A stretch of DNA of 64,000 bases from Felis catus (taxonomy: Eukaryota): positions 98,892,001-98,956,000 of the forward strand of contig NC_058368.1 in NCBI RefSeq assembly GCF_018350175.1. Direction: 5' to 3'. The notes under the pieces are model-generated. The model was not told the origin of the DNA, did not search any database, and saw nothing but the letters and a program-made list of their open reading frames with translations. Positions 20,541 through 64,000 of this stretch are shown here, piece after piece (position 1 is the first letter of the stretch; the number at the start of each line of letters is the position of its first letter). The position numbers and the translations under genes were made by a program.

Positions 20541-21250
20541 TACCCACTTTTTAAATATTCAACTCAATTCCCACCCCCTTTTTAAAATAAATTATTCCTT
20601 GAACTAATATGATTAAACTTATCTTCCCTTTCACTGATGTCCTAACATCCTGAATCCTCAAAAAGCACAGAAGTCTTCTTCCCCCCGCCAAGAAGATAAG
20701 CAGCTCAATTCTAGAGATGGGTATACAATAGATGCTAATGAAATGTTTGATGTAATGAATGACCTTGAAAGATGTTGCTGTGACAATTCACAAAATGGTG
20801 CCTGTTTTATATTAATAAGATAAATAACAAGATTTTGATATTTTTCCAGTTAATGGCAAATTCTGATGTGTACAATTTTTTTTAATTAAATGTGTCATTT
20901 CAAATCCTATAACTTTTCTTTTGCCCCCAAAATGGTGACTGTATGGAGACAAAATATCAGTGGTTACTTGATTCCAGAGATTCTCATACTAAGAGGGAGT
21001 AAATATTTTAAAAGGTGATGTGAAAGCCAGTGCTAAAACAGATCTGTCTATGCAACTGTTCTTGAACTTAATCACCTCACATTTGCTCAGATTTTGGAAA
21101 TAGCTGATCAAAATTGGGTAATAACATTTTGATGTGAACATAGCAAGAAATAACAGCAACTCATTTAAAAGGGTTAAAACTTAGCCTTCACTTATTTATG
21201 TTAGACTGCTGAAAGAAACCTCATACCCTTAGGTCCATGACACCCCTGTT

Positions 21251-21264
21251 GTTACCAAGGCAAC
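21251..21264. promoter_or_regulatory. RFX X-box-like motif GTTACCAAGGCAAC
   Basis: Two mismatches to the palindromic RFX consensus GTTGCCATGGCAAC, in apparently non-repeat sequence; function untested. Confidence 0.4.
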
Positions 21265-21879
21265 ACATCTCAGTCCAAATTGCAGGTTCTTAGGAGACGT
21301 GGTTGACTTGTGATGTCTCATGGCATCAGGGGACTGAGCAACATGTTTTCTCATGCCCGGCTCAAAGAGCAGACTCTCAAAAAATTCTGTGCTGATGATT
21401 CTTTTCGATAAGACAATGGATTTCACGACTTCTTCAAACAGAGCTCTCGACGTCACCAAAACAATGTACATCCCATTCTTCAGGAAGAGTGGTATCGGGA
21501 GGGACATGAAGAAAGGGGTTGTACGTGCAGCACAATCAACCCTCTTGCCCTCAAATTTGAAGATTTGAAGATGTTTGTCATCTGAGTTCTAAATTCAACA
21601 GCCTTAAGTCCCTGAATATCGAGAAACTGGTTGAATTTCACAGGGTTTAAGAGTATTCTTTCACAACAGCCAAATCACAATGTTGGGGGGGGGGGTTGAA
21701 AATGGCATAAAAATCTTTGGATGTCACCGGATGTAATTAGTCATCATTGAAAGGCACTATTCAAAGAAACAGAAGGAGAAGAAATAGTCAGTATGGCATC
21801 TTGAGCCCACTTCTCCCTCCTATATATATATATATCCTTGGCATTGGAAAAATTCACAACCTAGTTCTTGCTCCTCAAC

Positions 21880-25291: not shown

Positions 25292-25506
25292 TTTTTATTT
25301 TTTTATTGTTCATTTATTCTAAGAGAGAGAGCAAGTGCGAGCATGGGAGGGGCAGAGACGGAGGGAGAGAGAGAAAGAATCCCAAGCAGGCTCTGCGCTG
25401 TGAGCACAGAGCCCAATTCCAGGCTCGAATTCATGAACCATGAGATCATGACCTGAGCTGAAATCAAGAGTCAGATGCTTAACTGACTGAGCCACCCAGG
25501 TGCCCC
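25292..25506 (-). mobile_element. Can-SINE (older subtype)
   Basis: GAATCCCAAGCAGGCTC..GAAATCAAGAGTCAG..GCCACCCAGGTGCCCC. Confidence 0.96.
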
Positions 25507-25595
25507 TAACATGGGGCACCCCTAACATGGGGCACCCCTAACATGGGGCACCCCTAACATGGGGCACCCCTAACATGGGGCACCCCTAACATGGG
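25507..25595. repeat. 16-bp minisatellite (TAACATGGGGCACCCC)x5 plus a partial copy
   Basis: Perfect units start at 25507, 25523, 25539, 25555 and 25571; partial unit at 25587. Confidence 0.97.
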
Positions 25596-33089: not shown

Positions 33090-33313
33090 TTTTTTTTTTA
33101 ATTTTTTTTTCAACGTTTATTTATTTTTGGGACAGAGAGAGACAGAGCTTGAACGGGGGAGGGGCAGAGAGAGAGGGAGACACAGAATCGGAAACAGGCT
33201 CCAGGCTCCGAGCCATCAGCCCAGAGCCTGACGCGGGGCTCAAACTCCTGGACCGCGAGATCGTGACCTGGCTGAAGTCAGACGCTTAACCGACTGCGCC
33301 ACCCAGGCGCCCC
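33090..33313 (-). mobile_element. Young Can-SINE (CpG-intact) nested in the tail of an older SINE
   Basis: GAACGGGGGAGGGGCAGAG..GACGCGGGGCTC..GACCGCGAGATCGTGACC..CGACTGCGCCACCCAGGCGCCCC; TSD ATTTATTTGTTTTTTT. Confidence 0.97.
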
Positions 33314-33506
33314 AATTTATTTGTTTTTTTAAGAGAGAGAGCAGGGAAGGGGCAGAGAGAGAGAGGGAAGAGAGAGAAACCCAAGCAGGCTCCGCAACTG
33401 TCAGTGCAGAGCCTGATGTGGGGTTCAAACTCATAAACAACGAGATCGTGACCTGAGGAGAAACCAAGAGTCTGATGCTTAACTGACTGACCCAACCATG
33501 AGTCCC
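33314..33506 (-). mobile_element. Can-SINE (older subtype), host of the nested copy
   Basis: CCCAAGCAGGCTCCGCA..GAAACCAAGAGTCTGATGCTTAAC. Confidence 0.92.
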
Positions 33507-46931: not shown

Positions 46932-49054
46932 CTGCCAGAAATAAGATCTTTTCATTGAAAGATAAGCATGCTACCACTAAATTTTGACAACTAATTTTTC
47001 ATACGTTTTTATATATGAAATATAAATGGGATATGTGTTTAAAATATGCGTAGACACTTAAAATCCTCGATAAATCAAATAATTTTAAATTACGCATCCC
47101 ATTAACAAACAATTGGCTCATTAATAAGTGTAATGTGTTTTTGTTAAACTGTTTTTACTAGTTAAACTGATCTTTTATGTTTTGTTTTCCTTCCTTTGAC
47201 AGGTCCTTCAGGTTGGAAGGAATATCTTTATTTGGAGGCATGTCAGCTCATTTTTCTCACTTCAGATTCATCAATATGACTTCTTGAGGCCAGAACGAAT
47301 TTTGAAGTAACCAGGAACCTGTCCATCTTAGAGCAGCAAATCCCTCAACTTTGGAGCACAAAAGATCACTGATACGGTCTGCATAAAATCATCTGCCTCA
47401 GTCTGACAGCCATGAGCAGAACCCTGGGGGCAAAAAAAAAAAAAAAAAAAAAAAAGCCACAGCCTTAACTCTTCACTCTGAAATTACCAAGACAATTAAA
47501 AAAAAAAAATAAATAAAAGGAACTAAACAAGCAAGCCAACACCACCACCACCGACAACAAAAAACAAACACAACCCATTTTATTTCACCTTGGAAAAAAT
47601 ATTCCCAGATGTGAGCCTGAAAAAATTTATATTCAGCAATTAAGCTAGAAAATTGTAAGTTGACTTATCACTTGGGAAGGTGAAAGTATAGAGATAGGAG
47701 GTGTCTCTAGCTAGAATTATTTAGCAGTTTAAAACAAGTAGACAAAAACAATGAACAAACAGAGGAGCACATCAGCAAGGAACAGTGTTAGGACAGAATG
47801 TTGCTGTCTGCAGAGAGGATGTCTGCCATCTTGTGTACACCCTCAAAGCCATAATGGAATAAAAGCATTGTCGTTGATTGCTTGAAAAGTTTCTGCATTC
47901 ACTCCTTCACTCCATATTAAGAGAGGGGGGAGGCCAGTTCTTACTGATTACTTCTCAATGCACTTCTAATATTTGCACTGTCACGTCCATTCAGGGTAAT
48001 GATGTGTGCCGTTATTTGCACAGATGGTCCCATGAGTTTTGCGGCCACAAGCGGTTACATGCACGAGTCCAAAAAGGAAACATTTCAAAATTCTCCAGAC
48101 ATTGGTTTCTCTTTCTTCTGTAAAGATCAGTTATCTTATTAAAAAAAAAAAAAACATGGACTTGTATCAGATTAAAAAACTACAGAATAATAATGAAAAA
48201 GCATCAGTGTGGTCAAAGGAATGAAGAAGGGATCAAAAGTTTATTTTTGGTTTTGGTTTTGTTTTTTTAGTGAAGATCATTTTTATCATAAGCAGCCAAG
48301 AAGTCAGATACAGTGAACTACACACTAAACATTTGTGTTGAACATCTATTTGTTCTCTTAATTAAAGAAATCATTTGTAATTTGTATTTGACATATAACA
48401 GTTTTTTATAGCCATTTATCTATGCTTCATGGGAAAATGTACCAAACAGCATTTTCAGTTTATTTTTCTAAATAAATGTGTTGTTTGTATTATTTGTAGT
48501 TGCTTATTCAGTTTGGTTTTCGTTACTTGACAAATAAGTTACTTGTTGTCATATTAATTAAGAACTCACGGAAGACTGAAATTTAAAACATTTGTACGGT
48601 ATCAAATTGTGCTTTCTATTTCCTAAACCCTGAAGAAATGATTTATCTTACACCATGACTTTCTCGTCAAGCGTTATGTTAACATTCTAGTTAGACTAAT
48701 CACCCAGAGTTGGTTTTAATATATGGAAACTGCTGGAAACAAGAAAGTTTACGTATTATATCAGCAAGGATTTTCCCTATGTACTCTTTCTAGAAATCTC
48801 TAGAAGATGAAAATTAGATTTTTTTTAAACCATTATTCATGCCTAAGGAGTTCTCATTAATGCCCTCCCAGAGGTCTGCTGAGAACTTTCACTAGTGCAT
48901 ATAAAAATGACAGACTAGGCAATCGTACTAGAGCAAAAATAAAATTCTGCTTAAGGACTCAGTAAGTACCTTTACAGTGTTCATCCTCATTTGAGGCGTC
49001 ATTGTTTATGATCCTTGTTACCACCAATAAGTAGCACGCAGCTCAAACAAATTA

Positions 49055-49280
49055 TTTTTTTCTTTTTTCTTTTATTAAGGTGTAATTGATATATTAGTTT
49101 CAGGCGTGCAATGTAATAATTCAATATTTGTGTATTATGCTACAAAATAATCACAGCAAGTTCAGTTAACATCCATTACCATGCATAGCTATATTTTTTT
49201 TTCTTGCGGTGAGAACTTTCAAGATCCACTCTGTTAGCTACTTTCAAATATGCAATCCAGTATTATTAACTACAGTTATA
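49055..49280 (-). mobile_element. L1MA9-like 3' end
   Basis: T tail, ATTAGTTTCAGGCGTGCAA, GTTAACATCCATTACC, GTGAGAACTTTCAAGATCCACTCTGTTAGC, GTATTATTAACTACAGT. Confidence 0.85.
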
Positions 49281-50699
49281 GTCAGGCTTGTGGTGCTCTA
49301 GAATGCAGCTCAGGGAATGCAAAGATAGTGCCAGCCCTCTGAGGTCTCTGGAAAGGATAACAGTGAGTCCTCAGATGCTTGTTTTCATTTGAAGCCTGCC
49401 CCTCAGGCTGTAACTATGGAGGTAGGCTAATGGGTTCCTTTTAAGAAACATGGAGCTCCCGGGTCTGTTGCTTCCAGCTGTCCCTGGAGGATGGGAGCTA
49501 TTTAAGAACTCTCTCCATTGATTGCAGTTGTGTGGGACCCATGAGGGTAATTCCCCCTGGCCACCAGAGTCATGTAGGGATGTCCACAAAAATTGGGCAC
49601 TAGCTGAGGGTCTAAGCTCTTTTCTGCAATACACAGGTGAGCTGGTGCAAGGCAGAGGGAGACCGGGAAGATGGCATCCACCGGCCTTTGTTTCCTGAGA
49701 GCTCATGTGTGGCCTGTAGATGTGTGTCAGATCAGAAGCCTGTCCCTCAAGGCCAAAGCTCCAGGACAGGCAAATAGGCCTCTGTCTCAGAAAGACTGGG
49801 GGTCTGCTCCAGTATGTTATCAACGCAGGACCCTGGAGTTGGTAGGCTACCAAGAGCGTTCGCGCTCATTGCTGTGGTCTCGCGAGACCCGGAACACACG
49901 CTGCCCTGCCCTCCTGAGCCGCGCGGTCACCGCGCAGCAGTAGCGGAACGCCGGCCAACGGACATGTGTGAAAGCAGTCCTCTGGGAGATGCACACGCTT
50001 TGGTATGTGGTAGAGGAAACGTGTATTTCTTTTTCTGTGAAAAAGAAAGAAAGAAAAAAACCCTAGCATTAAATGAGGGGGACAAAAATGGCGCCTGTTA
50101 GCTGAAGTGAGGCCGAGAGAGGAAGAGCTGGAGATGGTGGCCGCCAGCCAGCAGCCTCTGCGTGTGTCCTAGATTACATGCCTGACCCTCAGGCTGCGAC
50201 TTGAAGATCTGTAAATGGCGCCCGTAGGGCCACAAAGTTGGGAGCTTCTGGATTGGCTGCTTCTGCGCTTGAACCCTGGGGCAGGTGAGTGCTTGTCAGA
50301 GCCTTTGAAGAGCCATTCCTCAGCTTTTTAGTCTTGTGGGTCTTGTGGACCGTTTGATTTGCAAAGCTGGACCTTTGGTGTGGGGGAGGGGGCGCGGGGA
50401 GGGTTTCTTCCCATGTGGGTGCCCGCGGTGGGGTTCAGACTCCTCACTTGGGGAGAAGCTCAGCTCCCTCCCAGCTGGACCACCTTGCAGGGGTTGGGGT
50501 TTAAGGGCGAGTTTGTGCCCCAGCCCCTCTTCCCGCCTTCGATGTGGACGTTCTGTCTTTAGCCTGGTTGGGTAAGAGTTGGTCTGCTCTTAGGTTTTGT
50601 CCCAGGAGGTGGTTCGACATGTGGCTTCAGATTCAGTATGTCAGCGGAAAGAGGTGAGCCAGGGATCCTCCTCTGTCACCATCTTGAACTGGAACTCCC
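49281..50699 (-). mobile_element. Old L1 5' UTR/promoter region with ~345-bp internal tandem repeat
   Basis: Minus strand begins GGAGTTCCAGTTCAAGATGGTGACAGAGGAGGATCCCTGGCTCACCTC (typical L1 5' YY1 start) and contains GAGCTTCTCCCC, ACTCACCTGCCCCAGG and GGCGCCATTTTTG; repeat units start at 49391 and 49735 (GAAGCCTGYCCCTCA). Confidence 0.75.
49823..50290 (+). promoter_or_regulatory. Candidate CpG-rich promoter and first exon (BANP/ZBTB33 palindrome, YY1-like sites, splice donor)
   Basis: About 17 CpG in 49823-49960; TCTCGCGAGA at 49878-49887; CCGGAA adjacent; AAAATGGCG at ~50085 and AAATGGCG at ~50213; CAG|GTGAGT at 50282-50290. Confidence 0.5.
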
Positions 50700-51281
50700 A
50701 ACAACCTAAGATAAATTATTTTTAATAATTAAAAGACGAGGTCATTAGGTTTATTCCCCAACGATGACCCGAAACCACTTCCCATTTTGTTCTGCACACT
50801 TAAATTGATTTATTGTCGGCAATCTCTCCTGGTAGTACTTAAAGTATCCTGTAACATAATGAAAATTAGTTTGCCATGCATGATTTGAACCCGTGAAAAT
50901 TAAGACGTTGTGCGTGAAAATAATCCAGCTGGGAATCAAATTGCCAGTTCCTGTGAGATGTTAGGCATTGAAATATGGATGCATGGGCTCATTCACATTC
51001 TTTTAACGTCTATGCTGATTGCTTCAAGCTGTGAATTACTTTCAATCATAAATAGGAAAATCAACTCCCCCCCCCCCCCCGCCAAACATCTAGAAGTAAA
51101 ATCCATCAAAAATAAGTGATAAAAATCATAGTTCTTTACTTGATGAATATACTGGTTGTTGAGCAGTCCTGTCTCTGCGATAGTCTATCGTGAGACCCTA
51201 AAGAATTTTGCAAAGAATTTTGACCTTATCAAGCCAGCGCTTGGGTAAGATAACACCACTGGTAATTGATAAAGTGAATTA

Positions 51282-51488
51282 GGGCACCTGGGTAGCTCCG
51301 TTGGTTAAGCGACCATCTCATGATTTCGGCTTAGGTCATAATGTTGCGGGTAGGGAGTTTGAGCCCAGCATTGGATGGATCTGCACTGGCAGTGTGGACC
51401 ATGCTTGGGATTCTCTCTCTCTCTCTGTGCCTCTCTCATGCACTCTTTCTCTCTCAGAATGAATAAATAAACTAAAAAAAAAAAAAAA
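51282..51488 (+). mobile_element. Can-SINE (older subtype)
   Basis: Head, TGCTTGGGATTCTCTC, AATAAA, A tail. Confidence 0.92.
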
Positions 51489-51849
51489 TGAGGCTGTGAA
51501 GTGGGTAGGGGTGAGAATTACATTTATTTTCTTCAACTTGAATTACATTTACTTTCTAAGTTATGTCACTTTTTAAAATCACGTTCTCTTCTTTTGTTCT
51601 CTTCAAATTTTAGATGTACCCTTTGCTATTTTCACAGTTCACTATTACTTTCACAAAACCTATTAAACAATCTTGAGTTCCCGTTGAGAATTACTATTTA
51701 CAGATTTCTCGAATTGAGCATGCCGATGTAGATAATCTCCACTTCCTGACATTTGCTTTTGGAGTGTGGGTTTGTTACATTTACATGCAGCTCCAACTGT
51801 TCTTGCTGGCCCCAGTTCACATAATTACCAGGTGTATCTGTATGGGTTA

Positions 51850-52260
51850 GATGATTCTCTTTATTTACTGAGTGCCTAGTCTGCAACACGAATTGTTCCA
51901 GGCACCAGAAAGAAATGGGTTCAGAAAAAAAGGCATGGGTCCTATTTTGACGCAGTTTAAAATCTAGAAGATTGGAGAGGGAAATACATTAAACATGTGA
52001 TTTCACTAGGTAACAAAAAAGAAAATGCAACAGTGTGCTAGGTTCTGTAAAGAAAGGTACATTTTATGCTGAAGCTATATATATCCAGTGATTGTAACTC
52101 AGTGGGAAAAGTAAACTTTGAGCCGAGATCTCAAGAGTGACTACCAGATAAATGAGGCAAAATCATGAGCAAAGCAGTACAAAGGAGAAAGAAAATAGAA
52201 TTTCAGAAGTCCTGAAAACAAGGCTAATTAGATTGGAGCAAATAAAGACGATAGCACAGA
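51850..52260 (-). mobile_element. L2 3' fragment
   Basis: TATTTACTGAGTGCCTAG..TTGTTCCAGGCACC..GGCATGGGTCCT..TTTAAAATCTAG..CTTTGAGCCGAGATCT. Confidence 0.6.
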
Positions 52261-52514
52261 GAAAATATGTACCCAATATACCTGATTGAATCCAAGCCAT
52301 AAGAAAAATGGGGAGTGGAGTGGGGGCGGGTTCCAAAAGATAATCAAAGAGTGCAGAATTATAAAGAAAAACATTAAGAATGGCCTTGGGGGCATTTTTT
52401 ATTTATATAAGGTATAGTTCTCAATGAAGATGCAAAAATGCATTCAGTAGCTATCTTTAAATTCATAAAGGCTTGAGCAACTATAGGTAGACTAACATTT
52501 AAACATGTTGAGAC

Positions 52515-52952
52515 CAATTTCTGTAAAAATAGATTTGCCTCTATGTGTCAGAGAACCCAAACTAACAAATAAGAGGCTGTTCAGACATGACAGAGCACCT
52601 CCTTAAAGTCATCAGGGATCCAGTCTTCCAATTTTCTGCTCTGATGTCCTTGGAATATGACTTTTGTCCTTATGGTGCACAACAATTGCTAGAGCTCCAG
52701 ACATCACATACACATTGCAGGCAGTACAGTGGGGAGAGAGCTTACCACTTCATTTGTAAGGAAATTTACTGAAAAATTTTCACAGGGTATTTTAGTATAT
52801 CTGTCATTGTTCAACTGGCCCCAAGAGCATAAGAACGAAGGAATGTAGTCCTTTGGCTGGGTTCTTTTGTCACTTTGAGTAAACTTGGTATTCTGACACT
52901 GAAAATTTTGGGGAATGAATTATGGTACCCATAGCTATCTAATTCTGCCACA
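52515..52952 (-). mobile_element. Old MaLR LTR (MLT1J/K-like)
   Basis: GTCATCAGGGATCCAG..TGCTAGAGCTCCAGACATCACATACACATTGCAGGCAG..GAATGTAGTCCTTTGGCTGG..TCTGCCACA. Confidence 0.6.
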
Positions 52953-54210
52953 GGACTTCAAAAATGTAGCACCAATTCATCATTCCCTGGGTTGAGTATT
53001 AGAGATTTTAAACACTAAACGATATGCAGGCTTGAGGGAATACAATTTTCAGCTCATATTTTCAGGAGGGAAATAACAAGTGGAGTTACATCATGTGAAC
53101 ATTTAATCTTCTTTGGCTTTTACTACGCTCACATCTATTCCTTTTTATGGACATATACACAGGATTGACAATCATATGGAAAATCTCTATATGTTTCCTG
53201 TTGTATCTCAACACACTTTGATTCTCGTCCAGAAAGAACAGTGCACTTTATAGATTGTAGAGGGAATTTTCACAGGACATTTTGAGTCTATCATACCTCA
53301 TTATTATGATATTCTAATGTACTGATAAATGGAATTTATCAGTAACTCACTAGTGCATACTTTAGTAGGGGGTTTTATAAATTGTTTTGGGGAAAAAAGT
53401 AGTGTTAGAATTGCCTACCATCTTTCAGATGAACAGGTCCTTAAGTTTGCGGGCATATTTTATGCTGTTTTTATGTAAGCGTCCTTTAGTATTTTTTGGT
53501 TTGGGCATAAAGAGGGGGTTGTTCATTGGGTATAGTGACAAGATCCAGGTATTCCAGAGGCTTAGATAGAGGAAATCAGTATACCCATAAAATTAAAAGT
53601 AAATGCTTGTAAGTATGTGTAGTATGGGTTCCTATAGAAAATGCAGGTCCCCACAGTCGTATGCACTTACCTAACACAGAGACTTTCTTTGGTCCCGTGC
53701 CAGTTATAAATGCATACAATAATGTTAAACATGTTTGAAATTATTTGAGATTTAGAGATAAAAAATAGCACGCAAATTGGAATTCAGTGTGATTGATCAA
53801 AAAGAGGGTAGTCTGTACTTTTCAGGACTTACCAGTCTTTTTAATCATAAAATAAAGTTAATTCATGAATGACTAATTTAACCGACCACTATGATCAAAT
53901 GAGCTGTTCTACAGCCTAGGAACATATGCTCTGCAAGCTTCTTTCAATTTCTCTGGGGAAGTGTCTGAATCTTCCAGAAGTGTTTATGCTTTATTATCCA
54001 ATGTGCAGACTGAACCCACAATTTGCTAACCTGATATGTGTTTTGAATAATTTCTGTTTCTATATTGCATGCTAACATAGAATAAATTTTTCAATGAAAC
54101 ATGAAAATGAGACCAAACCTGAATAGCACTTTGTACATTAATGACAATTCCTTTGGAAAATTACCAAGAAGGAAATATGCAATATTTTACCATAATCCAA
54201 AGAACTACTC

Positions 54211-54416
54211 TTTTTTTAAATGTGTATTTATTTTGAGAGAGAGAGAGCAAGCATGAGTGGGAGAGAGGGGCAGAGAGAGCAGGAGAGAGAATCTTAAGCA
54301 GGTACTGTGCTCAGCTTGGAGCCTGATATGGGGTTTAATCCCATGCCTATTAGATCAGGACCTAAGACTGAAATCAAGAGTCAGATGCTTAACTGGCTGG
54401 GCTACCCAGGTGCCCC
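54211..54416 (-). mobile_element. Can-SINE (older subtype)
   Basis: Antisense SINE; degenerate TSD CCAWAGAAMTACTC. Confidence 0.92.
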
Positions 54417-55019
54417 CCCCATAGAAATACTCATTTTAATTTAGAGTACTTAGAAATTGAGAGAAAGGAGCTTGGGATAAAAAGAGGAAGGTATACAGCA
54501 TGTTATATTACTTAAAATTCAAGTTTTCACTTTATTTTAAAAATATATGTTTAATTTGTATTTATTATAAATTAATATAACTTACTCAATTAGATAAACT
54601 ACAAAATTTATCCCATTTACCACCATTTGTCTATCCTATCCCTTCTCCAAAGGGAACCTGTGGCACAGATACAAATACCAATAGAATAATATAGTATTGG
54701 TGTGTATATGGATATGAACACGTGTGTTCTCCATTAATGGCATCATAATTTATCTAGTGTTTTGCCACCTGCATTTGTTCTACTGATGAATACATTTTAG
54801 AGATCTTTCCCCACTGTTACTTGTATCTCCTAGGAATTCCCTATATATAGTATTTACTCATTTCTCTTGTGTTTGGATGTTCAGATTATTTAGTTTTTTG
54901 CTGTTATAATCAACACTGCATGCAACACAAGCATAGGTGATTTCCTGTGCACATCTGCACGCTCTAAGGTGAAAATTGAGATCAGTTTTTCTTTACGAAT
55001 ATACATGGCCAATGCTGTA

Positions 55020-55108
55020 AAATTTTTTTTAAGTTTTCAGTTTTGAGAGACAGAGTGTGAGGGGGGAGGGGCAGAGAGAGAGAAGGGGAGACACAGAATC
55101 CAAAGCAG
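55020..55108 (-). mobile_element. 5'-truncated Can-SINE
   Basis: Only the 3' ~90 bp present; identical TSD ACATGGCCAATGCT at 55003-55016 and 55109-55122. Confidence 0.92.
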
Positions 55109-55942
55109 ACATGGCCAATGCTATATAGCATGTAGCATTGCCACAGATTTTGAAATTTTATTATTAAACTTCTTTGGCATTAGTGGTAGTGGTGTGTCAG
55201 AAGTCTCTTTTTATATCAGGAAATTCTGTTTAATTAACAGGAAATGAAACTGAGGAGAGAGGAACCATAGATTTTTGGGGGTAATAGATTTCACTGGAGA
55301 AGTGTCATTTGGCGCAGTAATTACTGTTTTCCAAAAGTACAGATGTAGGCATTAGTTTCGGAAACATGAGGATAGAAGATAGGTATATTTCAAAAGGCAA
55401 ATCATGCTCCTTAATTATGCTTACAAAACATTGGAAACAACTATATTTGTTAAGTCGTACTTGTTGTTTGGTTTCAGTTAATGTTGAGGCTTCTTTTTAA
55501 AGATGCCATTAGAATTCTCTTTTCTGAAATAATGCTTTTGAGATAAAAAAAGAAAAAAACAAAAAAACTATTGTTCAGTTACAGTATAAAATGTGAGGTG
55601 TGTTATCCCCTGTGACAATTTATGATCGCTGTGTTTTAGTCACAAAATTGCCTCCCTTACAAATCAACATTTTCAACAGGAGAATGTACATAGTAATTAA
55701 TGAAGAGCAAACAGACATTCACTTAGGTAGCCTAGCCCTCCTTTTAAATGAAAATGTGTATCTATTTGAATTTCAAATGCTATAAGATCTTATTTGTACA
55801 TGTAAAATATTAATGTTCTCCCGATAATGACTACATCCATAGGCTTTAACATTTTATTATAATGAACAATTAGCAGGTGGTTGAGAAATTAAAACCATCT
55901 AATTTTCTCAGGCAGAAACCCACCCTAACTGCTTCTCCTGCA

Positions 55943-56012
55943 AAAATAAAATAAAATAAAATAAAATAAAATAAAATAAAATAAAATAAAATAAAATAAA
56001 ATAAATAAAAAT
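55943..56012. repeat. (AAAAT)n pentanucleotide repeat
   Basis: About 13 units. Confidence 0.96.
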
Positions 56013-57462
56013 AACAGAAAATAAAAGCTCTTAACTGCTCTTTCAAAGCAGAAGTCCATTTGAGAAGAGGCCAAAAAGCGTGCTGAAGTAGAAATGTCCT
56101 TTGCCAGTGGATTTTCCTTTGCATATCTGTTTTTTCCAGCATTTGGACACCCAGATACTTTCCTGAGTAAAATAATGGAATTTTACTGAGAAATTTGGAT
56201 ACCTGGAGCAAAGCAGGAGGCAAAAGAGAGAAGGGGGAAAATAGGTTGCTTTCAACCAAGAGTTTAAGAAACAGCCTCCTTTTCTGTAAGGAAGCTCTTT
56301 TAGATTTAAATCTTTCAGAGCAAAAAACATCTGTCAACATCACCTGCTGGGAATACTGCCATCTCTTCTAGGGACAAAATATCTCAGCCTTAGAGAAGTT
56401 TCAGCTTCCTTAAGAGTATCCCTCCCTGTCATCCAAAACTTTCAGACCATCAATATTTTTTCATGCAACCCCATTATCCTTGAATTTGAGATTTGTCCAA
56501 TTTAATGTCTTCCTATTGACTATTCTCCTTTACTCCTTCAGCAAATATCGAGTGACTCTTATGTTCCAAATTCTCACTGCTTAAGCATAGAATTTAACTT
56601 GGAGCTTCCTGGAAGTCAGGAACAAACTATAAATAAGTGGAAAATATAGAGCTGTGTAATTTGTTAGAAAGAATAAGACAAAGTGTCAAGAAGTTCAATA
56701 AAAGCCAAGAGCTCAACAATGAAGTCCTGTGCATTTCAGTGAAAGAAGTTTTGTGTGCTTGTAAGCTAATGCACTCTGTTTGTTGTTTCTTACTTTTCCA
56801 AGACCAAAATTTGGAGTAAGTGGAAGACTGCATGTGAAAGCCTGTCTCCTGTATAAGCCAAGTTTGTGTTGCTTGAGAGTTTCCAAATCCTCTAGATTTC
56901 TGTGTTTTCACCCTACATAACCTCACTCTTGCCCCGTACATGCTGGGGGATAAACCAGCTCCTTCCCGGAGTCTGTGTGGAGTGTCTGTTTCTCCCTGTT
57001 TCCACTGATCGTGGTTCTGCAACTTGCGCATCAGAACAGATGTCCTCCTTCATGCAGTTTCTCCCCAGGTGAACACCACCCCTATTGTCTTCTTGCCAAA
57101 GCACAAACAACACAAGACTTTTCTGTGCCTAGCATGTTTTAATAAAACTAAGGAGAAAGTGGAGGATTACATCCTGCTCAAATGGCAGCCCTCACTTTAG
57201 TTTGTACACCAAAAATGCCACGTTTCGTATTGCATGATAGGTGATTTCTCTTTGGTCACTTCCTACTCTTCCTTTCCCTATCAAATTTATAGCCATCTGT
57301 CTCCTTAGCGCGTTCTGTATTAAGGTCATTGCTCTCCCTTTCTAGCTGCCTTCAACCCCAAATTACTGCCCTTTTCTTACATAGAGCAGTATGCTATTAA
57401 GACCTCATTTTGCAAAGCCAGGAAGACTATTTGAGATATTTCCTGCAATAAAGACCCACCTC

Positions 57463-57641
57463 AGGAGCACCTGGGTGGCTCAGTTGGTTGAGTGTTCAAC
57501 TCTTGATTTTGACTCAGATCGTGATCGCGGTTCATGAGTTTAAGCCCTGTGTCAGGCTCTGTACTAACAGTGCAGAGTCTGCTTGGGATTCTATCTCTCT
57601 TCTTCTCTGTCCCCTCCCCTCTCAAAATAGATATATAAACT
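57463..57641 (+). mobile_element. Can-SINE (older subtype)
   Basis: Identical TSD TAAAGACCCACCTC at 57449-57462 and 57642-57655. Confidence 0.95.
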
Positions 57642-58194
57642 TAAAGACCCACCTCTACCAAGCTTCCCACTAGAATTTAGAAATAAGAGAGTACTTGTTT
57701 ACCCAATGAAATTCTTAGGCACTTGATAGGATGCTAGTAAAAATATTTTATCTTCCATTTGATCTAACTCCTTATAAGTTGTAGGACTGGAAATAGTGAT
57801 TTTGTTGTTGATGTTTTGTTGTCTTTGCCTATTTTGATTTCTTCCAGTTATATCGGAACTCTCCTGAATAGATTTTTATGAATGAATGTAAATTAATTCC
57901 TCTTGTAATAAGATGATTAGCCCAATCATTAATATTATTATTAGTATTTTTAAATTCCTGTATTTTACTCTTAATGTATTTGGAGATCTGTGTTCTCTTC
58001 TGTTCATAATTTTGGCTTAAATTATGAAGGTACTCGGTATGACAGAAACACAATAGTCAAATGTTAATATAATTTGGTGGGGTAGAAATCACTTGAGAAG
58101 ACACAGGCTGTTTGATTACTTTAGGAATATGTTAATTATATGAGAAACACATCTCTTGGAATTCCAAGAATTATGGTGCCATTACTACAAAACT

Positions 58195-59510
58195 AATGAA
58201 TGGATTCAATAAAAATTGAATCCGTGTCTTCTGGGCCAAGGCACCATCTAAGAACAAGGATATAGTTATGCACAGAAACAGCAGTGGTTGCATTATAATG
58301 AGAGTAGGCAGATGATAAGTAAATACAAATCTTTTATATTTAATAACAAATATGGCAAATGTCTGTTGTTAGTTAGAAATATGGAAAATGATAGAGCAGT
58401 ACATGGGGAATGGGAGATGACGCAAGTTGGGAAAATCAGTGTTGTAAAAATGTTATATTATATACAGCAGTGAGGCAAGACTCCTTTGAATTGGTGACAT
58501 TTGAGCAGAGACCCAGAGGAGCATTGGGAGTCAGCAGTATGTGATTGTGGGGAGCACATTTCAGGATAAGGAAGAACAAGAGTGAAGGGTCTGAGTCAGA
58601 AATGTGCTTAAAGGAGGAAAAGTAAGTTAGCTTAGAGCCGAGTGACTAAGCACAGAGAGATGGAGATGAGGTAAAGATGTAGCATGGTGGTGTCAGACTT
58701 TGTAGAATCTTACAGGGATTTTAGGACTGTGGATTTTACTCTGAGTAAAATGAACAGTTATGATAGGGAGTATATTTGAGAAGTGGCAAGATCTAAGGAG
58801 CGAGGTGATTTATCTTTTAAAAGGAACACTTTCCTCTGCAAATGGGACTTAGGGTAGAGTTTGAAGCCAAGAGACAGTTGGGTCACCTATTGGAATAATC
58901 CTGAAGCAAACAGGTGATGTCTTACACCCAGGTAGATTGCAGTGAAAGTGGTCAAAGGTACTCAGTGTTGGGATATATTTTGAAAGTTTAGCTAATGATA
59001 CTTGTTTGTAGATGGATAAATTATGGGTTGTAGGAGAAATAGAGTGTCAAGAGTAACTTCAGGTATTTTGTTTTTTGGAGTTCTGAGTAAATAGAATAGT
59101 GAGGTTGCTGTTCATTCAGATGGGTAAGTCTGAAGTAGGTGGAACAGCAGATTTAAGAGGTAGAATCAGGATTTGGTTTAGGATATGTTAAGCCTGAGAT
59201 GAATAATAGATATCCAAGTGGACATGTCAAGAGAGGAAGCTAGAGTTCCAAGTCGGATAAGCGATGGGGATATACATTTGTGAATCATCAGGATGTAGGT
59301 GTTGAGTAAATCCATGGGCCTGGATGAGATCATCTAAGGAGGGAGAATAAATACAGAAGTTGAAAGATAGAGCCCTTGGGCACTCCAGTATTTAGAGTCG
59401 AGATGAAGAGGTAACAGCAAAGGAATATTTGTAGAAGATGGACTAGTAAAATGGAAGGAAACTAAGGGAAATTAAAAGTGACAAAGAAATACATTCTAAG
59501 AGGTCAAATC
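58195..59510 (-). mobile_element. L2 (L2a-like) 3' region
   Basis: GGTGACATTTGAGCAGAGACC, GGATTTTACTCTGAGTAAAATG, GGATATATTTTGAAAG, TAGATATCCAAGTGGACATGTCAAG, CTGGATGAGATCATCTAAGGA. Confidence 0.88.
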
Positions 59511-62303
59511 CCAAATGACATGACAATGACACTACTTATTTTGGCACAAAGCATAGTGGCCCGTCCACAGAAAATCTGTGTATTTTATTTAGGCTCACTT
59601 ATGTGTTAGGAGGAAGTTGACAGCCTCTCACAGAGGAGTCCACAAGCGTGGACTGCATGTGGTGATCATGATGGCCCGTCTTCCATCTGGCTGTGGGACA
59701 GTGACAATGCCCTAGGACTATGATCTAGTGAAAAATCACTTTCAAGTTCTCCCACCTCTCCAAACCCCAGCCAATTCAATTCAAGTGATATTTATGAGCT
59801 ACTCTGAGTCATATTATGCTCACTTTGGAAGTGTAGCCAGGCAGATGTCCAGGTTGCTCATGGCCCTGTTAAATCTTAAGCAGAGACTGTATCATTCAAC
59901 TTAAAAGAAGCAATTAAACATGATATATTACAAAAGGCAAACTAGGAAGAAACAAAAGAAGCACCCAGTAATTGATGGTCGAGGGTGATGTTATCCAGGA
60001 CCGAAGTTCTCTTTGCAGGGATGGCATTTGTGGTGCTAATCTGCACAGTGAGAAGGCTTACAGGCAGCTGGTAAAATAAAAGTAGTAAAGGTGGGCCATC
60101 ATGCTCAGAGCTTCGGGTTCCAAATGAGAGTTTGTCTTAGGGATTTGAGTAAAAATGTGAGACAGCAAGTGAGTGGAGTAAGGATCCTATTACCAGGCTA
60201 GGATTTATCATGAATGTTCTATCAGGCTTCTTTGTTGGAAGAACCTTGAGGAACCCAACCATCTTGCTTTGGTCCTCATTCTCCCTCAGGTCCCATCAAT
60301 AAAGTTGCTTTTCCTGAGCTCCTTTTTCTATCCCAGTTAGCCCCCCTCCCACTTTTTTTTTTTTCTGTGCAAAGTTTTCTAGATGTCAGGCTGATTAGGG
60401 CATTGTTCAGCTGATGCAGGCCTGGTCAGATCTTCCTCTCGCTTCCCTCCCCTTGGTGAACTTGGACATATTGGGTAATACTGTCATTCTGAATACTGCA
60501 TGAGACGTCTAGGCTGTGAGAAACAGACAGCTGCGAGGTTACTGAGGAAGAAGACACTTCCAGATACACATGGTCCCAGGGTACCCTCCAGCTCTCTCAG
60601 CAGTGCTTATTAGTGATGTCAAGGGAGTTTGCAAGGAAATGTGTTTGCTAGGTTTAACTTTACTGTTACTACTCTAAACAGCAAGGAAATCTCCTGAGTC
60701 CTGAGTACCGAGAGCACTGTATTCGTATATGGGACGTGCATCTCGTATTGATTATACATTAAAAATTGGGATATAGTCATGGAGTCTCGGTAAGATGCTA
60801 GATAATGGAAGAAGTTAATATATTTCCCACTTTCTTTTTCATTTTTTAGACTCTTGGTTTCTTCATACATTAAAACCTCACTGTGAAGAATATTATAAAT
60901 CTTGTTAATTATATGGCAAAACAACATACAGAGATGATTAAAGACCAATACAAAAATAATTGCACATGATTTCATTTGGAGAAGGAACAGGTTAGAGACA
61001 GATTGACAAATAACTATCAAATGTGTGAAAAATCCTTACAAAAAAGATGACTGAATAGTTAGCTTCCACGAGGACCAAGTAAATTGGCTTAATTAGGCTT
61101 TATTAAACAGATTTGTTTTTTTACTGAAAGGAGAAATCTTCCTAATGGTGTGTACTTTACTAAACTTTGAGGTTTTAATCTTTTCCTGTCTTCTATTGAT
61201 TTTTTTTTTCTATGTGGTTTCTTCCATCCAGAAGCAGAAGCAGCAGTTGTGGAAATTTGTGTTCTGCTCCTGTTCAGAGTGATGACATTAATAATATGTC
61301 ATAGCAAGGATAAATAAAATCTGATAAATTAGAAGCGTGGTGCATGTATATGATTCTCAAAACTCTCCCCAAATTAACAGAATAAATTTTAATTTTCAAA
61401 ATTGGGTATTTGTTTGATAATTAACTAAATTTACAAAAGAATATTTACTTTATAGAAAATATTAACCCAGGACAAAGTTTGGCTCATTTGATAATCATTG
61501 GCTAGTCATCAATTGGGATTTTGTATGAAGGATGTTAAGGCACCTGCTAAGGGTAGGAAATACTGTAAAGTGTACCTATCAGGAAAACTCCTTGAGGCCA
61601 AAGCATGGAATCTGAGTGAGCATCCATCTGGTTGCCTCTTAAAATAATGCTTGATCAAACTCATCACCCTGGAATCCCGAATGCAGAGTTTAGGGCATGA
61701 AAATAAGAGCAGGCTCTTACCTAATGGCTTTCCAAATAATTGACCTTTGTATAGTCTCATTCCTTGAAGAGCTGTTCCATTTCTTCCAGTGATACTTGCA
61801 CTTCTGTATTGCTTTCACAGCCCACGTGTGTATCTTTCATGGCTGCTTTAACTAAATATAAGAAACAGACTTGGGAGCACTGTTGTCAGAAATACTCTTT
61901 AAATTTCTGTTCTTATGGTGAAAAAGCCTTTCTATTTTGCCTAATAGCTGTAATTAACAGTAAAAATGAATGTTTACCATAGTTCAATAGTTAAAATTTG
62001 CAAAGGGGAAGTAATTGAATCCATTAAACACATCATTTTCATCATCAAATATAAAAGGTGTAAATCCAGGTGTTCTGTTAAAGGCTAAGAATTAAAAGAG
62101 AACAACATGATTTTCTCATTCCACATATTATTATGGAAGTTTTCTAAGCAAGCTTGTAACATATAAAAATGAAGGTCTACTAAGACCAACAAAACAATAC
62201 AAACAAAAAATACTGTCTTCTCATTTATTGGCATTTAAGTAAACACACGGTCTATAAAGTGGACTCTCTTAAAATCTTGGCTTTAGACACTACTTTTGGT
62301 GTG

Positions 62304-62517
62304 TTTTTTTAAAAAAAATGTTTATTTATTTATTTTTAAGAGAGCACGCACACAAGCGGGAGAAGGGCAGAGAGAGGGAGAGACAGGGGGAGAGAGAGAG
62401 AATCCCAAGCAGGCTCCTCACTGCCAGTGCAGAGTCTGATGCGGGGCTCAAACCCACACACTGGGAGATCATGACCTGACTGAAGTCAAATGCTTCACCA
62501 AGCCATTGAGGCACCCC
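62304..62517 (-). mobile_element. Can-SINE (older subtype)
   Basis: Antisense SINE; TSD TA(G/A)ACACTACTTTTG. Confidence 0.95.
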
Positions 62518-62529
62518 TAAACACTACTT

Positions 62530-62700
62530 TTGTGATCCTCAGAAAGATATTTAACCTACTTTGCATCAGTTTTTTTCATCTATAAAATAGGGATGATAAT
62601 TACATGTACTTCATATGGTTTTTTGAATTGAGTTAAAACATGTATACACTTACATACTGACATTGCCTGGCATATACTCAGTGCTCGATACATATTAGAT
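62530..62700 (+). mobile_element. MIR
   Basis: ATTTAACCT..CATCAGTTTTTTTCATCTATAAAATAGGGATGATAAT..TGCCTGGCATATACTCAGTGCTCGATA. Confidence 0.85.
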
Positions 62701-62879
62701 TAAAATGTGTAGCTTTTATTTACAAAGCACAGAAATATTTTAAGTTGGTCTAAACTTGGTGTAAAATAAGTTAACAGAAGTCAAGAATAAATCCACACAG
62801 TGATCTAAGACCACGTCTCTCTAGGCCTTCGATGCTTATCATTCTGGCCATAAAGAGGTCTTCACACAATGAACAAGTT

Positions 62880-64000
62880 CTGAATCCCAGACCTCCTATT
62901 CTCAGTCAACAGAGGTCAAGGTGGTAAACCATACATTTATGCCTTCTTACACCACCCTTCAACCCCCCACATTTATAGCCTTGTTGTTTCTATTTGGCTT
63001 AAATCCAGAACAAGTAACGCCATTAAACCCTCTACTCCCCTTTGTACAGTTAGCACCAGGAACTCATGCTTCTTGGTCCTTTCACCTCACTGGTTCTAAA
63101 CACCCTTTCTACCTGCCGTTCCCTTCCTTTGTTAAACTCTTCCTTAGCTTCCAAAAACCCTTCTACTGTGTTCTCTGGAACTCATAATCCATTATCAGCA
63201 TAATATAATGGGTTTTTAAACTCTTCTCTGAACATACTTTTGCTTTCTAGCTCTTAAAAAACCTAGGGTCTTCCTTAAAAACTCTATTTCCCCTGTAGCT
63301 TTTAATCAGTGTCTGCTTTTTCATCCCTAACTGGGCTTTGACACTGGCCTTTAAGGTGAGGTTGTGTCACCTCTACTTTTCATGGTGGTTTTCAGACCAT
63401 TTTGGATGATTCCCTTATGCTCTTCTCTAAGCACCCCCACCATCAAGGTTTAAACCTCATGATAACAGATTTATTACCCACTACCTTTCCTTGTTTCTGG
63501 CATTTGCCTGTGCCTTGGTCATTCTCCCTTCATTTCTCGGAGATTTAGCTCTCAGCTCTTTGTCATTATCAATACCTCTTCCATTTTAACTTGTGGCAGT
63601 GTGAATATTCATGGATTCATAGATAAATCTTCCAGCACCTTGCTCCCTCCATTTCTTGAGCATCTCTTCTTTTGACCTCCCTTTTTCCTGAGCTCTTTAT
63701 TCCCTAGCCATATGCTAGACCTTATTTTTACCCCACGTTACGCATTATTCCTCTTTATTTCCTATATTTCATTTCTCTTTCCCCAGCTCCCCTTTGTAGT
63801 ACTCACTACTCACTCTTAACACCCCATTTGCTTCATTCACTTGAAATAATAGGCATTCACACTCTCAGCAACTTAACCCATATTACATAGCTCAAATTAC
63901 TTGCTTAATCATTAGAAACCTTCCTTTTGGTAAACCCTCAGCTCTCTTGGTCTTCTGTTATTTCATTAGCTAGTTGGGTTCAGCTGCAGCTATGGTTAAA
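62880..64000 (+). mobile_element. L2 internal (ORF) fragment
   Basis: C/T-rich decayed L2 body: CCCTTCTACTGTGTTCTCTGGAACTCA, AAACTCTTCTCTGAAC, GGTCATTCTCCCTTCATTTCT. Confidence 0.7.

Follow-up and report, generated by a model that had tools for sequence, protein, structure and literature searches.

The origin of CpG islands is still unsettled (it is hard to tell in which order selection, methylation loss and GC-biased gene conversion, or gBGC, come into play), and the locus described here raises the question within the relic of an old L1 element: was its dense patch of CpGs preserved from the transposon, or was it written into it afterwards? Newly gained CpGs should survive only in DNA that is little methylated in the germ line, and be lost elsewhere by deamination. 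The window (i.e. the whole 64,000-nucleotide stretch of the Felis catus genome that was analysed) has a CpG observed-to-expected ratio (O/E) of 0.24, with a non-SINE background of 0.21. The CpG-rich patch announced by the original prediction is indeed the CpG-density maximum of the window (138-bp window scan), with 17 CpGs in the 138 bp of 49823-49960, a GC content of 0.67 and an O/E of 1.09; the runner-up 138-bp windows hold 11 and 9 CpGs and both fall within young SINEs. From the non-SINE background 3.2 CpGs would be expected in this segment (p=6e-8, an optimistic value because the segment was picked as the window maximum). The second CpG peak of the window is a young SINE at 33130-33315 (12 CpGs in 186 bp). 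The patch and its surroundings can be laid out as follows:

49823..49960, no strand: CpG-dense core with 17 CpGs, mostly gained (judging by the family copies), and with A/T-to-G/C change in excess
49823..50322 (at least to 50322), no strand: CpG island by sequence criteria
50700..51270, no strand: non-repeat flank, CpG O/E 0.61, 12 CpGs versus 4.1 expected

Over its 500 bp the stretch 49823-50322 (GC 0.56, O/E 0.70) lies within the usual sequence criteria for CpG islands. On its left the CpGs stop abruptly (3 in 538 bp), while on its right the O/E stays at 0.35-0.61 as far as ~51270, the value of the right flank (0.61) being higher than that of all 93 background bins. The non-repeat flank on the left of the L1 (48500-49049) also has a raised CpG O/E (0.56, p=0.007), so that the downstream CpG tail is not clearly directional, and the L1 may have landed in, or have around it, a mildly hypomethylated domain. 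A special single-strand structure was considered and rejected (z=0.03).

Within the core lie two elements of possible regulatory meaning:

49878..49887, no strand: perfect CGCG/BANP element TCTCGCGAGA, within the 14-bp palindrome GGTCTCGCGAGACC (49876-49889)
49889..49894, plus strand: CCGGAA, a partial ETS-type core whose CpG (49890) was, by the same comparison, also gained

The element TCTCGCGAGA occurs only here in the window, GGTCTCGCGAGACC is unique within it even at 2 mismatches (0.02 expected), and of 40,000 dinucleotide-shuffled versions of the 138 bp only 2 contained TCTCGCGAGA. Both the palindrome and the adjacent CCGGAA are thus present as foreseen (the latter as a partial ETS site only, without the GT of a complete one), and the identity assigned to the motif agrees with the published CGCG/BANP element. 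The CpGs are not, as had been proposed, centred on the palindrome, since 4 lie to the left and 11 to the right of the motif (mean position 49905). In the literature, a single TCTCGCGAGA is described as driving bidirectional transcription, usually within 50 nt, and as being blocked by methylation (PMC6192621), fully methylated DNA as not being bound by full-length BANP (PMC11472053), and BANP as a chromatin-opening factor that positions start sites (10.64898/2026.05.04.722487); in cattle, BANP is named as candidate gene at a trans-QTL hotspot for sperm methylation (PMC12374274).

The host of these elements is an internally deleted old L1 on the minus strand, 1.65 kb long and with three 5' UTR repeat units:

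49042..49059, no strand: probable target-site duplication, left copy (15 of 18 bases identical to 50706-50723, ungapped)
49052..49076, minus strand: L1 poly(A) tail with AATAAA signal (49071-49076, read as TTTATT at 49071)
49077..49284, minus strand: L1 3' end, ~210 bp, abutting the 5' UTR and placed by its position between tail and 5' UTR
49285..50699, minus strand: L1 5' UTR, three imperfect units (from ~49391, 49735 and 50178, plus-strand numbering)
50677..50699, minus strand: L1 5' terminus, with GGGAG start and the YY1 word CAAGATGG, its CpG decayed
50706..50723, no strand: probable target-site duplication, right copy, pairing with 49042-49059

A poly(A) tail, a target-site duplication and copies elsewhere (26 homologous translations) were all found, and together with the 5' YY1 word and the repeat units they bear out the assignment to an ancient L1 5' region. 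The interval 49040-50725 holds both L1 ends and the target-site duplication without the ORFs. Because only ~210 bp separate the tail from the 5' UTR, ORF1 and ORF2 are missing, and no L1 domain was found in a Pfam scan of 147 window ORFs (taken from ~200 of at least 58 aa, plus 4 shorter), in which none reached the cut-off and 5 gave matches below it (short exons would escape such a scan). Either the L1 lost its ORFs by deletion after insertion, or it was mobilised as a non-autonomous form. The segment 49077-49284, for which a relative was sought in the window and none found, presumably resembles an L1MA9-type 3' end, and the host subfamily is presumably of L1MA9/L1M2 type. These subfamily names appear, as names only, in PMC5753468. 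On the minus strand CAAGATGGTG sits 12 nt past the GGGAG start and provides the CAAGATGGC YY1 word of an L1 5' terminus, which fits the mammalian L1 start consensus with its YY1 CAAGATGGC core, as given in PMC5381506; 50240-50699 is assigned to the L1 from this terminal word and the duplication only. As for the internal repeat of ~345 bp that had been described, the spacing holds (the units at 49391 and 49735 lie 344 bp apart), yet the part that aligns well spans only ~155 nt (score 46 vs 22+-3 in 500 shuffles), and there is a third unit, in which 50097-50242 matches 49637-49800 (score 60.5 vs 36.8+-5.4).

A repeat copy has relatives from which its earlier state can be estimated. As a search for DNA copies of the repeat had 0 matches among either viral or metagenome contigs, we used translated ones: a profile-free HMMER search, run with the minus-strand frame of 164 codons, yielded 27 proteins. 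One is that of the window itself; the other 26 are unnamed translations from further copies, which are colinear with it over 49291-50143 once frameshifts are allowed (3 of them reaching 50107-50217) and thereby also underlie the 5' UTR assignment. Three reading frames are represented among these copies, so that the residues limit which bases the family can have had, and CpG decay is recognisable from the residue mix (e.g. Trp and Gln out of an Arg codon). The family state so obtained rests on the residues of 26 spurious ORFs (unknown species, possibly mixed subfamilies) and on alignments seeded on the window copy, the reference being neither DNA nor a Dfam consensus.

At the motif site the translations of the 26 other copies give the family state TCTC(G/A)TGGGA; in 17 hand-checked segments TCTCATGGGA and TCTCGTGGGA together account for ~0.95, and the posterior is 0.003-0.005 for a CGCG core in the family and <1e-8 for the perfect motif (17 segments, 3 parameter sets; P0008 and P0012 were omitted for frameshifts at the site, and P0025 as ambiguous). 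A first automatic inference had placed the second CpG of the motif at 0.58, which the fuller alignments and the hand-checked segments settled. From this family state the BANP motif lies no fewer than two substitutions away, and the second unit must at a minimum have acquired T>C at 49883 together with G>A at 49885. The first unit has the following counterpart:

49528..49537, plus strand: first-unit motif counterpart TTGTGTGGGA, whose GTGGGA half equals the family state

The original prediction had read this counterpart as a TpG-decayed internal control. The family state at the first-unit site is TCCCGTGGGA (posterior 0.70-0.92, 19 segments), so that the second TG of the first unit is ancestral and no decayed CpG; the motif was gained in the second unit.

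The same holds for most CpGs of the core, of which 14 of 17 are absent from the family and 2 are ancestral (32 aligned segments; 12-16 gained in 25 bootstraps). Rather than the CpG retention that had been suggested, the inventory gives ~4 family CpGs in the 138 bp, 2 of them kept; in 49300-49822, 2 of 15 family CpGs survive. A stricter run on first-pass alignments counted 10 gained and 2 kept among 15 scored, 7 of 11 were gained when P0015 (the copy nearest to that of the window) was left out, and with a prior favouring CpG sevenfold in addition, 6 were gained and 4 kept of 11 (p=0.014; p=0.002-0.014 over the stricter runs). Simulated pure retention over the same columns yields 1-3 gained and 8-12 kept of 15, which indicates that the method separates gain from retention. 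By comparison with the family copies, we consider that the core CpGs and the BANP motif are mostly mutational gains made after the L1 inserted, and that the stretch looks like a newly built gene switch and not a preserved one.

P0015 requires separate consideration. At 59% identity to the window copy, it agrees with the window in 15 of 22 window-derived residues (p=2e-4, best of 26), the other 25 copies doing so in 101 of 357. It has 8 derived residues in common with the window between 49823 and 49910, and both read S-R-E-T at the motif; the Arg of P0015 presupposes the gained G at 49883, whereas a change at 49885 would be silent in this reading frame. The same residues over the motif also occur in another sequence that is almost identical to the window's ORF. 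We regard P0015 as the probable orthologue of this locus in a rather distant mammal, the alternative being a sister subfamily; if orthologous, the motif change predates the cat family, and the suggestion of a possibly lineage-specific origin becomes doubtful in its narrow sense, as P0015 has many of the derived states. The residues common to both within 49823-49910 could also be accommodated by retention from an unsampled L1 sub-lineage (P0015 included) whose 5' UTR already had the motif and the CpGs, the more so as clustering of the protein set at 50% identity may have concealed near sister sequences. Nevertheless, the derived residues are found in just 1 of 26 copies, a search with P0015 gave no further relative (1 match, itself, among 13 candidates), and outside the core the element agrees with the sampled family to within 16-22% divergence, as against 29% inside it, all of which makes such a sub-lineage decidedly improbable.

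If the CpGs were gained, the manner of their gain may be read from the direction of change. A/T-to-G/C (W>S) substitutions amount to 19 of 48 sites in the core versus 19 of 166 in 49300-49822 (p=5e-5), with equal G/C-to-A/T (S>W) rates in both (13/75 and 36/220), i.e. the clustered W>S excess without S>W excess that characterises gBGC tracts; G>A at 49885 goes opposite to the GC bias. The concentration in the core bears the mark of GC-biased gene conversion acting on unmethylated DNA. According to PMC11170920, gBGC tracts overlap with many orphan CpG islands in cat, dog, pig and horse, and according to PMC11161765, PRDM9-independent recombination sites are used in 39 of 52 mammals, hypomethylated sites being PRDM9-independent hotspots in most placental mammals. 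As a W>S excess requires no function, the patch might also be viewed as the neutral gBGC scar of a past hotspot (PRDM9-directed or not), with the motif as a by-product that has no present regulatory role: the family state is just two substitutions off the motif, so that chance maturation is expected in some copies, and no gene was found in the Pfam scan of 147 ORFs. We hold such a scar to be unlikely, albeit worth weighing, since the CpGs of a short-lived hotspot should decay if methylated (like 13 of 15 in 49300-49822), whereas the core shows no surplus of TpG or CpA (O/E 1.25 and 1.01), the flank is CpG-enriched, and the probable orthologue P0015 retains the Arg codon. From known deamination, the persistence of the gained CpGs points instead to low germ-line methylation, and the locus is most plausibly unmethylated in the germ line, with a role as promoter or enhancer.

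Should the island initiate transcription, the following plus-strand features (antisense to the L1) would lie downstream of the motif:

50085..50093, plus strand: YY1-type word AAAATGGCG, also a 5-codon upstream frame (YY1 by the CAAGATGGC core as given in PMC5381506)
50213..50220, plus strand: second YY1-type word, with an ATG at 50215
50282..50290, plus strand: consensus splice donor CAG/GTGAGT, candidate first-exon end at 50284

The window has only these two YY1-type words (50085 and 50213), and its CAG/GTGAGT sites comprise 4 on the plus strand and 0 on the minus; for GTRAG donors in 48600-51700 the numbers are 7 and 0. The L1 poly(A) signal faces the minus direction, 800 bp off. According to 10.1101/2024.05.28.596138, YY1 motifs lie just downstream of start sites and are strand-biased. 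The YY1-type words and the donors came with the L1 and therefore say little on use, and strand skews outside SINEs are weak and mark no new transcription unit. From the ATG at 50215, 23 codons run to the donor (50215-50284, phase 1), a frame that could serve as N-terminal extension if spliced to a coding exon. For the putative product, the likeliest options are a non-coding RNA and an alternative first exon. A coding role was rejected both for the 107-aa plus-strand ORF of the island, which matches only itself among 5 candidates, and for the 164-aa minus-strand ORF, which matches only unnamed repeat translations; an Rfam search of 48200-64000 gave no match.

Among the 24 runs listed, 20 hold at least half the words of 49700-50700. 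Those recorded as RNA (n=3, 2 studies) hold 0.60-0.85 of these words, bearing in mind that RNA runs can hold DNA, and those guessed to be RNA (n=11, 4 studies) hold 0.84-0.87; some of these 14 runs are contig sets of just 27-137 million letters. The steady shortfall of ~14% hints at coverage from near the island, and would fit DNA carry-over or chromatin libraries equally.

Elsewhere in the window, 21229-21674 is exon-like, with few stops, and contains a 119-aa minus-strand frame (21232-21588) that had no homologue among 272 candidates (longer proteins) and no Pfam match, for which reason no neighbouring gene is named. Nearer the island, an acceptor-like site on the plus strand at 47203 precedes a short frame, which gives way to a long AT-rich run and then to AATAAA near 48471, such that 47203-48476 looks like a terminal exon ending 1.4 kb ahead of the island; its three frames gave no Pfam match. 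At 25503-25595, between SINE ends, a 16-bp unit with CCCC/GGGG arms is present in 5.8 perfect copies, a recent tandem expansion.

The small size of the island, with no coding exon near it in the Pfam scan, would also suit an unmethylated orphan island that acts as an enhancer or poised element and yields unstable bidirectional RNA only, and species-specific orphan islands are described in PMC11170920 as marking enhancers. We find this role rather improbable, as high-affinity ZBTB33/BANP and YY1 motif instances are reported to be promoter-enriched and enhancer-depleted (10.1101/2024.05.28.596138) and a consensus donor follows on one strand.

Taken together, these observations favour, at somewhat better than even odds (about 0.55), an orphan CpG-island promoter that is young for mammals and was built within a dead L1. 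Its history, as read from the family copies, began with an L1 5' UTR carrying a near-site two substitutions short of the BANP element, after which this copy acquired TCTCGCGAGA and ~14 CpGs, with W>S changes packed into ~140 bp. BANP would then occupy the unmethylated site and open the chromatin, and the open, unmethylated site would draw PRDM9-independent recombination, whose GC-biased repair adds CpGs and reinforces the island. Starts near the motif would be bidirectional and productive on the plus strand (L1 antisense), where the transcript would reuse the YY1-type words of the L1 and the donor at 50284, while the minus-strand transcript would meet the L1 poly(A) signal. A further and more specific proposition, that the birth of the BANP site itself nucleated the island (two substitutions leading to an unmethylated spot, then to recombination and gBGC, and finally to CpGs), is tentative, and we would bet against it.

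Each of these components is of a known kind, and comparison with published systems suggests that it is the route, through CpG gain and not CpG loss, that is unusual. Like the CGCG/BANP CpG-island promoters (PMC6192621; PMC11472053; 10.64898/2026.05.04.722487), the locus combines an island lacking a TATA box with a perfect TCTCGCGAGA and, close by, with words of partial ETS and of YY1 type; those promoters are mostly conserved and housekeeping, whereas the site described here appears to be derived, is part of an L1 relic and can be linked to no known gene. With the maturation of transposon proto-motifs (PMC8240256; e.g. RSINE1 E-boxes, Alu p53/MYC sites and the MER39 prolactin promoter) it has in common an imperfect consensus site perfected by point mutation after insertion. 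That route, however, proceeds mainly by CpG deamination in methylated copies, while here maturation would have created CpG, and the resulting site is methylation-sensitive and needs an unmethylated state. Orphan islands that arose by transposon insertion or gBGC (PMC11170920) and PRDM9-independent hotspots (PMC11161765) resemble it in being small, off-gene, found in a carnivore and marked by directional W>S change; unlike them, it would combine both sources at one site, with a candidate nucleating motif that can be dated against a repeat family. Finally, L1 antisense promoters and other transposon-derived starts (PMC4908685; PMC12963367; PMC5932608) offer a parallel for the predicted antisense transcription and the donors within the 5' UTR, but are mostly intrinsic, young and CpG-poor or decaying, whereas here an old element appears to hold a rebuilt island: more than 93% of human transposon-derived start sites are without CpG islands (PMC12963367), and young repeat-derived ones evolve fast and lose methylation with age (PMC5932608). 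The literature consulted (mostly open-access text) contained no report of a transposon-born BANP site matured by CpG gain, the nearest precedent being the enrichment of BANP/ZBTB33 motifs in active THE1B/THE1C copies (PMC10474299).

For the question of how CpG islands arise, the value of this locus is that a repeat copy supplies its own ancestral reference, against which the island and the BANP site appear to have been written in and not left over. As a single locus known from its sequence, it is a clean example and not a new mechanism. If the pattern recurs in the L1 family, it would tie a single transcription factor site to the birth of a CpG-island promoter and reverse the usual view of transposon sites as maturing through CpG loss. 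Moreover, if nucleation by the motif were true, the family would provide a natural experiment, in which CpG gain is expected in the copies with a matured motif and not in the others, and, because every copy of this L1 5' UTR carries near-sites, it would constitute a genome-wide seedbed of new CpG-island promoters.
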